This document shows, piece by piece, positions 6,764-55,774 of a stretch of DNA of 64,000 nt (position 1 is the first letter of the stretch; the number at the start of each line of letters is the position of its first letter). The DNA lies in the NCBI RefSeq assembly GCF_988243305.1, contig NZ_OZ547136.1; one strand, 5' to 3'. Made by a program: the position numbers and the translations under genes. A model generated the notes under the pieces. That model did no database searches. It had not been told where the DNA came from and worked only from the letters and a program-made list of their open reading frames with translations.

Positions 6764-7045
6764 TTATGTTGGCGTTTTCTATTCAGTATAGAAGTGGGAG
6801 CGACTGGGCGAGATGCGGAAGTTCTGGAATGTTTTTTTTTGATGATGGTGACTGAAGCAAATTGGCTACATTTTGCAATATGACAAGTTATGGCAGTGCG
6901 GACTGGTGGCGAAGAATTTTGACGATTGAGGCATGCAGAAAAAACGGGTTCAGCTTCAGTTGATCAAATGAGGATTGAGAAGTCCGAAACAGGACTTACT
7001 GTATAAATAAACAGCTATTTTGCTAAGGAAGGGTAAGATAACGGC

Positions 7046-7110
7046 GGGTGCCTGAAGCTTTCCGGTTTCAGGTTTACTCTGAGGTCTGGAAAGATGAAGC
7101 CCCAGGACGA
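7046..7110 (-). ncRNA. sokE: Putative Sok antisense RNA, copy 1 (approximate coordinates)
   Basis: Inferred from hok/sok architecture: antisense to the mok translation-initiation region; candidate minus-strand -10 tagaaat at 7123..7117 and a weak -35. Confidence 0.3.
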
Positions 7111-7282
7111 TATTTCTATCAACCCTGGGGCTGCCACTCCAAACCCAAACAATTTGGATGGTAGTCCCTTCTTCGCATGGAGGCAATATAAACATGCTGA
7201 CGAAATATGCCCTTGCGGCAGTCATAGTGCTGTGTTTGACGGTGCTGGGATTTACGCTTCTGGTCGGAGACTCGCTGTGTGA
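7094..7282 (+). CDS. mokE: Mok (modulator of killing) overlapping reading frame, copy 1
   Basis: 62-aa ORF overlapping hok in another frame, as in hok/sok loci. Confidence 0.5.
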
Positions 7283-7346
7283 GTTTACGGTGAAGGAACG
7301 TAATATTGAGTTTAAGGCTGTTCTCGCTTACGAACCGAAGAAGTAG
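7194..7346 (+). CDS. hokE: Hok-family type I toxin (50 aa), copy 1
   Basis: [50 protein letters not shown]; single TM helix and conserved Hok C-terminus. Confidence 0.85.
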
Positions 7347-7418
7347 CCGTTGTGCGGGGAGTAATCCCCGCATATCCGGTTGTCAGGTCAGGGTGGTAAG
7401 GCACCTGCTTTACACTTT

Positions 7419-7446
7419 CGCCCGCGGTCAGCAATGGCTGCGGGCG
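7419..7446 (+). terminator. 3' stem-loop of hok mRNA copy 1 (terminator/fold-back region)
   Basis: cgcccgcggtcagcaatggctgcgggcg palindrome. Confidence 0.5.
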
Positions 7447-7549
7447 ATGTCGTTTTAAGGGCAATGATCAGTTTTGCCAACAGAAGTCCGAAACAGGATT
7501 CACTGTATAAATAAACAGCTATTTTGCTGAGGAAGGGTAAGATAACGGC

Positions 7550-7614
7550 GGGTGCCTGAAGCTTTCCGGTTTCAGGTTAACTCTGAGGTCTGGAAAGATG
7601 AAGCCCCAGGACGA
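7550..7614 (-). ncRNA. sokE: Putative Sok antisense RNA, copy 2 (approximate coordinates)
   Basis: Same position relative to mok/hok as copy 1. Confidence 0.3.
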
Positions 7615-7786
7615 TATTTCTATCAACCCTGGGGCTACCTACCCAAACCTGAACAATTTGGATGGTAGTCCCTTCTTCGCATGGAGGCAATATAAACATG
7701 CTGACGAAATATGCCCTTGTGGCAGTCATAGTGCTGTGTTTAACGGTGCTGGGATTTACGCTTCTGGTCGGAGACTCGCTGTGTGA
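7598..7786 (+). CDS. mokE: Mok overlapping reading frame, copy 2
   Basis: 62-aa ORF, 3 aa different from copy 1. Confidence 0.5.
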
Positions 7787-7850
7787 GTTTACGGTGAAGG
7801 AACGTAATATTGAGTTTAAGGCTGTTCTCGCTTACGAACCGAAGAAGTAG
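7698..7850 (+). CDS. hokE: Hok-family type I toxin (50 aa), copy 2
   Basis: [50 protein letters not shown]; one substitution (A8V) relative to copy 1. Confidence 0.85.
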
Positions 7851-7950
7851 CCGTTGTGCGGGGAGTAATCCCTTAAGTTAGCGCTTATGGGAGTAATCCC
7901 CGCATATCCGGTTGTCAGGTCAGGGTGGTAAGGCACCTGCTTTACACTTT

Positions 7951-7978
7951 CGCCCGCAGTCAGCATTGGCTGCGGGCG
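7951..7978 (+). terminator. 3' stem-loop of hok mRNA copy 2
   Basis: cgcccgcagtcagcattggctgcgggcg palindrome. Confidence 0.5.
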
Positions 7979-7999
7979 AATCGCTCCGGGTATTGTCAA

Positions 8000-23051: not shown

Positions 23052-23190
23052 AAATCAGCTTCCTGTTATTAATGAAGTTAATGCTTCTCATTTTCATTGT
23101 AACCACAACCAGATGCAACCCCGAGTTGCAGATTGCGTTACCTCAAGAGTTGACATAGTGCGCGTTTGCTTTTAGGTTAGCGACCGAAAA

Positions 23191-40152: not shown

Positions 40153-40275
40153 AAGCATTCTCTCCTTGTTTTTGCATGTATACATAACAGCACATTATTG
40201 GTTATGAATCTATGATTTGCGAGGCTGATTTGATCTGAATTTGCTATTGAGCTGGAAAATAAATAAAACCAGGCG

Positions 40276-40365
40276 CTACCAGCGTTGTTCAAGGTATAGC
40301 ACTGCAGCAACAATAATTGCTGCTATGAATATATAAAATGCAGTGATACCGAGAGCTTCGCTCAT
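40276..40365 (-). CDS. Hypothetical 29-aa hydrophobic small ORF (unverified)
   Basis: Translation MSEALGITAFYIFIAAIIVAAVLYLEQRW; one predicted TM helix; weak RBS; below the 60-aa cutoff of the supplied ORF track. Confidence 0.2.
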   Translation of the reverse strand: MSEALGITAFYIFIAAIIVAAVLYLEQRW

Positions 40366-40507
40366 ATGAGGTTCCGCAGATGAATAACCAGTTCAGATTA
40401 GAATGCTGCGCTTAAGAGCAAAATGATAAATCTGGTTGATATTTGAGCGGAAAGAGGATGCGAGTGCATCCTCTGGGCAAAGCGAGTTATCGCTTGTGCA
40501 GATGGGA

Positions 40508-54069: not shown

Positions 54070-54243
54070 GACAAATGAAATTTTAGTAAACTCTTTAAAA
54101 TCAATGAGTAAAATAATTAACATCAAAAATAACGCGACTTTTATCACTTTTTAGTAAAGTTGCACTGGACAAAGCGTACCACAATTGGTGTACTGGTAAC
54201 CGACACAGCATTTGTGTCTATTTTTCATGTAAAGGTAATTTTG

Positions 54244-54453
54244 ATGTCTAAGATTAAAGGTAACGTTAAGTGGTTTAATGAGTCCAAAGGATTCGGTTTC
54301 ATTACTCCGGAAGACGGCAGCAAAGACGTGTTCGTACACTTCTCTGCAATCCAGACTAATGGTTTTAAAACTCTTGCTGAAGGTCAGCGCGTAGAGTTCG
54401 AAATCACTAACGGTGCCAAAGGCCCTTCTGCTGCAAACGTAATCGCTCTGTAA
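54244..54453 (+). CDS. cspE: Cold-shock domain protein
   Basis: 69 aa from [12 protein letters not shown]; RNP motifs KGFGFI and VFVHF. Confidence 0.9.
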
Positions 54454-54471
54454 GATACGTCAGCAAGAATT

Positions 54472-54501
54472 CAAAACCCGCTTAATCAGCGGGTTTTTTT
54501 T
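54472..54501. terminator. Bidirectional intrinsic terminator between cspE and crcB
   Basis: aaaacccgc ttaatca gcgggtttttttt. Confidence 0.7.
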
Positions 54502-54890: not shown

Positions 54891-54985
54891 TGCAAAATCC
54901 TGCTATTTGATTTGTATGAGTGATAAGTGTAACGCCGAATAATCGCCGTTGGCGAATTTTACGACTCTGACAGGAGGAGGTGGCA

Positions 54986-55774
54986 ATGCTGGTTGCCGCA
55001 GGACAGTTTGCTGTTACATCTGTGTGGGAAAAGAACGCTGAGATTTGTGCCTCGTTGATGGCGCAGGCGGCGGAAAACGACGTATCGCTGTTTGTCCTGC
55101 CGGAAGCATTGCTGGCGCGCGATGATCATGATGCAGATCTATCGGTTAAATCAGCACAGCTGCTGGAAGGCGAATTCCTCGGACGTTTACGGCGAGAAAG
55201 TAAACGTAACATGATGACGACAATTCTGACGATTCATGTTCCTTCAACGCCGGGGCGCGCATGGAATATGCTGGTGGCGCTACAGGCAGGAAACATCGTC
55301 GCCCGTTATGCCAAACTGCATCTCTATGATGCATTTGCCATTCAGGAATCACGCCATGTTGATGCTGGTAATGAAATAGCTCCGTTACTGGAGGTGGAAG
55401 GGATGAAGGTCGGTCTGATGACCTGTTATGACTTACGCTTTCCAGAGCTGGCGCTGGCACAGGCATTACAGGGAGCTGAAATCCTGGTACTTCCTGCCGC
55501 CTGGGTTCGCGGGCCGCTCAAAGAGCATCACTGGTCAACGTTGCTTGCCGCTCGTGCGCTGGATACCACCTGTTATATGGTGGCGGCGGGGGAGTGCGGG
55601 AACAAAAATATCGGGCAAAGCCGGATTATAGATCCCTTTGGCGTCACCATTGCGGCAGCGTCAGAAATGCCTGCACTCATTATGGCGGAAGTGACGCCCG
55701 AACGTGTGCGTCAGGTGCGCGCGCAACTGCCCGTCTTAAACAACCGTCGCTTTGCGCCGCCGCAATTATTATGA
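54986..55774 (+). CDS. ybeM: Nitrilase-superfamily C-N hydrolase (Nit1-like amidase), apparently intact
   Basis: Uninterrupted 262-codon frame (ORF track starts at GTG 54980); GGAGG RBS upstream; catalytic-Cys region [12 protein letters not shown]; conserved Glu and Lys regions present. Confidence 0.8.

Follow-up and report, generated by a model that had tools for sequence, protein, structure and literature searches.

The window, that is, the whole 64,000-nucleotide stretch analysed here (contig NZ_OZ547136.1 of assembly GCF_988243305.1), is collinear with the chromosome of Escherichia coli K-12 MG1655 at about 596-667 kb. It displays the gene order pagP, cspE, crcB (opposite strand), ybeM, tatE, lipA and ybeF, and the pagP-cspE-crcB-ybeM-tatE-lipA neighbourhood is shared with BL21(DE3) and NY1601. 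Flanked by crcB and tatE, as it is in MG1655, BL21(DE3) and NY1601, the gene is orthologous to ybeM, and its reading frame is uninterrupted on the plus strand from the ATG at 54986 to the stop codon at 55772-55774. The following features were delineated:

54972 to 54980, plus strand: ribosome-binding site AGGAGGAGG, which contains AGGAGG, 5-8 nt upstream of the ybeM ATG (direct reading).
54986 to 55774, plus strand: intact ybeM coding sequence, 262 codons and a stop (open reading frame list; Pfam, NCBIfam and RefSeq matches).
55103 to 55105, plus strand: GAA codon of Glu40, the predicted catalytic Glu (LPEA), aligned with LPE of 1EMS and 4H5U.
55185, plus strand: G in codon 67 (CGT, Arg67), the base absent from the K-12 allele (pairwise alignment with NC_000913.3).
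55313 to 55315, plus strand: AAA codon of Lys110, the predicted catalytic Lys (AKLHLYD), aligned with KLHLFD of 1EMS and 4H5U.
55346 to 55348, plus strand: GAA codon of Glu121, the predicted second Glu of the nitrilase-superfamily tetrad (IQES), aligned with ES in LMESE of 1EMS and LKESK of 4H5U.
55412 to 55447, plus strand: predicted catalytic-Cys motif, residues 143-154 (includes TCYDLRFPE), with the nucleophile Cys147 encoded by TGT at 55424-55426.

An alternative start is offered by a GTG found 6 bases upstream of the ATG, which is the one used in the open reading frame list and would extend the product to 264 aa. The ATG at 54986 was taken as the start because it is preceded by the well-spaced AGGAGGAGG and because the RefSeq annotation of NY1601, a strain 99.9% identical to the window, has ybeM in its 789-bp ATG form. 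The spacer between ybeM and the divergent crcB measures 95 bp. An Rfam scan for the fluoride riboswitch gave none in this spacer down to E=0.1, a consensus scan of the same interval yielded no strong or convincing sigma-70 promoter, and terminator-like sites were no more numerous there than in shuffled controls. Just upstream, the cspE leader and coding region (54143-54501) match the cspA thermoregulator of Rfam (RF01766; 123 bits for a gathering score of 78; E=3.5e-32), with a match ending within the cspE terminator hairpin (54473-54497).

Comparison of YbeM with family models identified CN_hydrolase (PF00795) as its sole Pfam domain, with a score of 141.4 bits (cut-off 23.2; E=4.2e-41) over residues 3-245, corresponding to positions 2-255 of the 256 in the profile. 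The NCBIfam model NF033621, 'deaminated glutathione amidase', was matched from residue 3 to residue 261 (profile positions 2-260 of 260) at 451.5 bits for a cut-off of 355, which places the protein within the YbeM type. All other NCBIfam models of the nitrilase superfamily scored far under their cut-offs. These included the omega-amidase YafV/Nit2 type (NF007757; 61.5 bits vs an equivalog cut-off of 249) and the Yersinia-type deaminated glutathione (dGSH) amidase (NF043013; 82.7 bits vs an equivalog cut-off of 500), the latter score leaving YbeM outside the Yersinia lineage and indicating that bacterial enzymes named dGSH amidase do not form one tight family. By sequence, the best solved relative was the Nit domain of Caenorhabditis elegans NitFhit (1EMS; E=1.7e-29, 106 bits), ahead of yeast Nit2 (4H5U; E=1.1e-26, 97 bits) and mouse Nit2 (2W1V; E=4.4e-22, 82 bits); yeast Nit3 (1F89) also matched.

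Alignment with 1EMS and 4H5U brought E40, K110, E121 and C147 into conserved columns (LPE, KLHLFD, ES and CYDxRFPE, respectively), and the column of Cys147 is the position of the Cys-to-Ser difference between PDB entries 4HGD and 4H5U. These data support the assignment of YbeM as a probable Nit1-type C-N hydrolase of the nitrilase superfamily with its predicted catalytic residues present. The original prediction had proposed an uninterrupted 262-codon frame with a good ribosome-binding site, encoding a nitrilase-superfamily protein with a catalytic-Cys region and upstream Glu and Lys regions. The frame, the strong AGGAGG-containing site and the motif around Cys147 were all found as described; the superfamily assignment, with the PF00795 and NF033621 scores given above, is far beyond chance, and the alignment with Nit1 and Nit2 proteins resolved the upstream regions into LPE(40)A and AK(110)LHLYD, completing the Glu-Lys-Cys triad, adding the second Glu at 121 and leaving no catalytic residue missing.

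The closest known relatives of this protein fall into several groups. The window YbeM is identical to RefSeq WP_001305561.1, named deaminated glutathione amidase, which has been found on 1,000 contigs or more and is one of 3,131 members of a cluster built at 90% identity. The BL21(DE3) protein (WP_000959109.1) is also intact and has 261 of its 262 residues in common with it, the difference being R124 there vs H124 in the window. More distant are the eukaryotic Nit1, yeast Nit2 and the Nit domain of NitFhit, which share with YbeM the C-N hydrolase domain, the Glu-Lys-Glu-Cys set and the CYDxRFPE motif. Compared with NitFhit and yeast Nit2, however, YbeM is shorter, has no Fhit fusion and is devoid of the yeast Nit2 insertions, so that its match to 4H5U splits in two. 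E. coli YafV and the mammalian Nit2 omega-amidase belong to the same superfamily and have the same catalytic residues, but differ from YbeM in subfamily and in reported substrate (2-oxoglutaramate).

The K-12 gene occupies the same locus with the same neighbours and displays about 99% nucleotide identity with the window allele, yet it is broken. The MG1655 record (NC_000913.3) lists ybeM (b4581) as a pseudogene and gives it 788 bp, vs 789 bp in the window, and the annotation of K-12 ER2796 reads 'deaminated glutathione amidase, frameshifted'. A global pairwise alignment of the window gene with NC_000913.3 658031-658818 revealed 7 substitutions in 789 bp and just one gap, a 1-base deletion in K-12 that removes the G of codon 67 corresponding to 55185, a base located outside any homopolymer run. 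The resulting K-12 frame runs into stops after residue 75, ahead of Lys110, Glu121 and Cys147. When the base is restored, the conceptual K-12 translation differs from the window protein by V33A, V37A and H124R. The statement, put forward with the original prediction, that the K-12 gene is a frameshifted pseudogene was thus correct, K-12 ybeM being neither intact nor of the same length. In UTI89, out-of-frame sub-fragments of ybeM (112, 87 and 29 bp, one of which encodes MFLQRRGAH) were reported to cause filamentation when over-expressed from pBAD24, and the full open reading frame caused none (PMC6206680). The MFLQRRGAH peptide also occurs within the frameshifted K-12 reading, but past its first stops.

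Several other regions of the window depart from K-12. A tandem duplication of hokE/sokE, a type I toxin-antitoxin locus, occupies 6978-7979, with two 300-nt copies (6978-7277 and 7482-7781) that are 96% identical and flanking repeats of 91 nt (7357-7447 and 7889-7979). K-12 has a single hokE/sokE copy followed by IS186B, an element missing from the window, and two hokE genes are also annotated in NY1601. At 40170-40447, the window is missing ybdR (b0608), which in K-12 encodes a putative Zn-dependent alcohol dehydrogenase; there, in the uspG-yldA interval, about 280 bp stand in place of about 1.6 kb in K-12, as in NY1601. The fepB-entC intergenic region (about 23079-23081 in the window) is shorter than in K-12 by about 184 bp, and the segment absent here (624541-624725 of K-12) presumably corresponds to a repetitive element.

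The distribution of the two ybeM alleles was established across 5,426 complete E. coli genomes, 5,424 of which carry the locus. These searches returned 5,436 matching places, two of them on plasmid-typed records; some genomes had two copies and two had no locus. The deleted allele was recognised with a 35-mer that has the K-12 deletion at its centre, so that megablast seeding is possible only if the deletion is present, and the census scored the codon-67 site alone. On this basis, the K-12 deletion occurs in 860 of the 5,426 genomes (15.8%), and the undeleted 36-mer taken from the window was found in 3,668. The remaining genomes, about 900, have a SNP near the codon-67 site, and the two that were sampled (CU37RT-2 and PBP8) are annotated with an intact gene of 789 bp. 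Intact ybeM is the majority state in E. coli and K-12 is the exception. Carriers of the deletion include NCTC86, a stool isolate from Mozambique (annotated as frameshifted), and isolates from poultry or chicken, pig, river, seawater and soil; among 60 evenly sampled deletion records, about 37 came from natural sources (human, animal or environmental). The proposal that the strain of the window retains a functional Nit1-like amidase must therefore be qualified: an intact gene predicted to be of the Nit1 type is indeed there, but nothing sets this strain apart, as the intact form is usual and only about 16% of complete genomes have the deletion.

Sequence variation within each allelic group was also informative. 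Most differences between intact alleles are synonymous, giving a pN/pS of about 0.07-0.10 (small counts), a pattern that fits purifying selection. Within the deletion group only two differences were found, both non-synonymous, which fits relaxed constraint, these counts being tiny. Strain 300709 has the deletion and yet has kept V33 and V37, indicating that the V33A and V37A changes of K-12 arose after the frameshift. With about 16% of E. coli genomes being devoid of the enzyme, YbeM is dispensable at least in that clade. Tentatively, one may go further and regard the frameshift as a natural polymorphism that became fixed in a large and successful clade, where the loss of dGSH repair might be neutral or advantageous, with the window representing the ancestral, selected state; we consider this broader scenario unlikely. 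A record from strain 'EcN_Sk' (NZ_CP172017.1, 719-1506), whose name evokes Nissle 1917, contains a ybeM pseudogene identical to that of K-12 (deletion, A33 and A37) together with the K-12 allele of the CrcB protein, which suggests either a K-12-derived segment or a strain other than its name implies.

In enzymes of the nitrilase superfamily, a Cys thiolate attacks the amide carbon, a first Glu acts as the general base, and the tetrahedral intermediate is stabilised by a Lys and a second Glu; departure of the amine-bearing leaving group is followed by hydrolysis of the thioester. Positions 54986-55774 of the window hold an intact E. coli ybeM that, judged from its sequence, very probably encodes a 262-residue cytoplasmic enzyme of the Nit1 type, whose likely role would be metabolite repair by action on deaminated glutathione. 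This compound arises from glutathione when its free amino group is swapped for a keto group by a transaminase side reaction. With Glu40 as general base, Cys147 would attack the amide carbonyl of deaminated glutathione along the thiol-acyl route of the family, while Lys110 and Glu121 would stabilise and position the intermediate, and hydrolysis of the acyl-enzyme would release 2-oxoglutarate and cysteinylglycine. In K-12 and its relatives, the one-base deletion in codon 67 cuts the product short after 75 residues, so that it ends ahead of Lys110, Glu121 and Cys147. In 2017, Peracchi and colleagues (PNAS) reportedly assayed the YbeM of E. coli B on dGSH, the K-12 gene being broken. The mammalian Nit1 and its yeast orthologue are described as hydrolysing deaminated glutathione, a transaminase side product, in PMC5714238, which cites Peracchi et al. 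2017, and YbeM bears the label NIT1/dGSH amidase in PMC8788347.

A role on deaminated glutathione can be weighed against the view that YbeM is an active C-N hydrolase with another substrate, acting as a Nit2-like omega-amidase on 2-oxoglutaramate or 2-oxosuccinamate, or on some other small amide. The matches to mouse Nit2 (E=4.4e-22) and yeast Nit3 are compatible with this view, as are the origin of the dGSH amidase name in a curated HMM and homology, and the poor score of the Yersinia dGSH-amidase model (82.7 vs 500). Yet Nit1-type structures outscore the Nit2 type (106 and 97 vs 82 bits), the YafV-type model NF007757 falls short of its cut-off (61.5 vs 249) whereas NF033621 passes, and the Nit2/2-oxoglutaramate amidase of E. 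coli is attributed to another gene, yafV (PMC8711792). Another substrate is therefore improbable.

Alternatively, ybeM might be intact yet silent or decaying in the strain of the window, either unexpressed or inactivated by H124. Dispensability in the K-12 clade, a 95-bp crcB-ybeM spacer in which scanning found no strong sigma-70 consensus promoter, and the presence of R124 in both BL21 and K-12 would point in this direction. However, the exact protein with H124 is the one found on at least 1,000 contigs, residue 124 varies among solved homologues, the ribosome-binding site is strong, and intact alleles show the signature of purifying selection. In the uropathogenic (UPEC) strain CFT073, moreover, NsrR ChIP identified the ybeM region as a target and NO stress alters the expression of ybeM (PMC5320621), so that at least one wild strain transcribes, regulates and expresses the intact gene. 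We thus regard a silent or decaying gene as very improbable, even more so than a different substrate. A further idea is that the K-12 frameshift stems from faulty sequencing or from a mutation acquired in the laboratory, which would make its contrast with the window artefactual. Single-base indels are a common type of error, but the deleted G lies outside homopolymers and the identical deletion recurs in 860 independent complete genomes, many of the sampled ones from natural sources and including NCTC86 and stool, chicken and river isolates, so that this explanation was rejected as hardly credible.

Overall, an intact gene that very probably encodes a Nit1-type enzyme for deaminated glutathione remains the preferred reading of this locus. 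The gene, its name, the pseudogene status of the K-12 copy and the exact protein are already in public annotation, and nothing in them is new; the one mildly interesting point is the frameshift as a widespread natural polymorphism of a lineage. The K-12 ybeM lesion is a lineage marker common to many natural isolates, as opposed to a laboratory artefact. Studies of deaminated glutathione repair call for strains with an intact allele, such as the strain of the window, BL21 or UPEC strains, and K-12, taken as the reference, gives an incomplete picture of the metabolism of E. coli.
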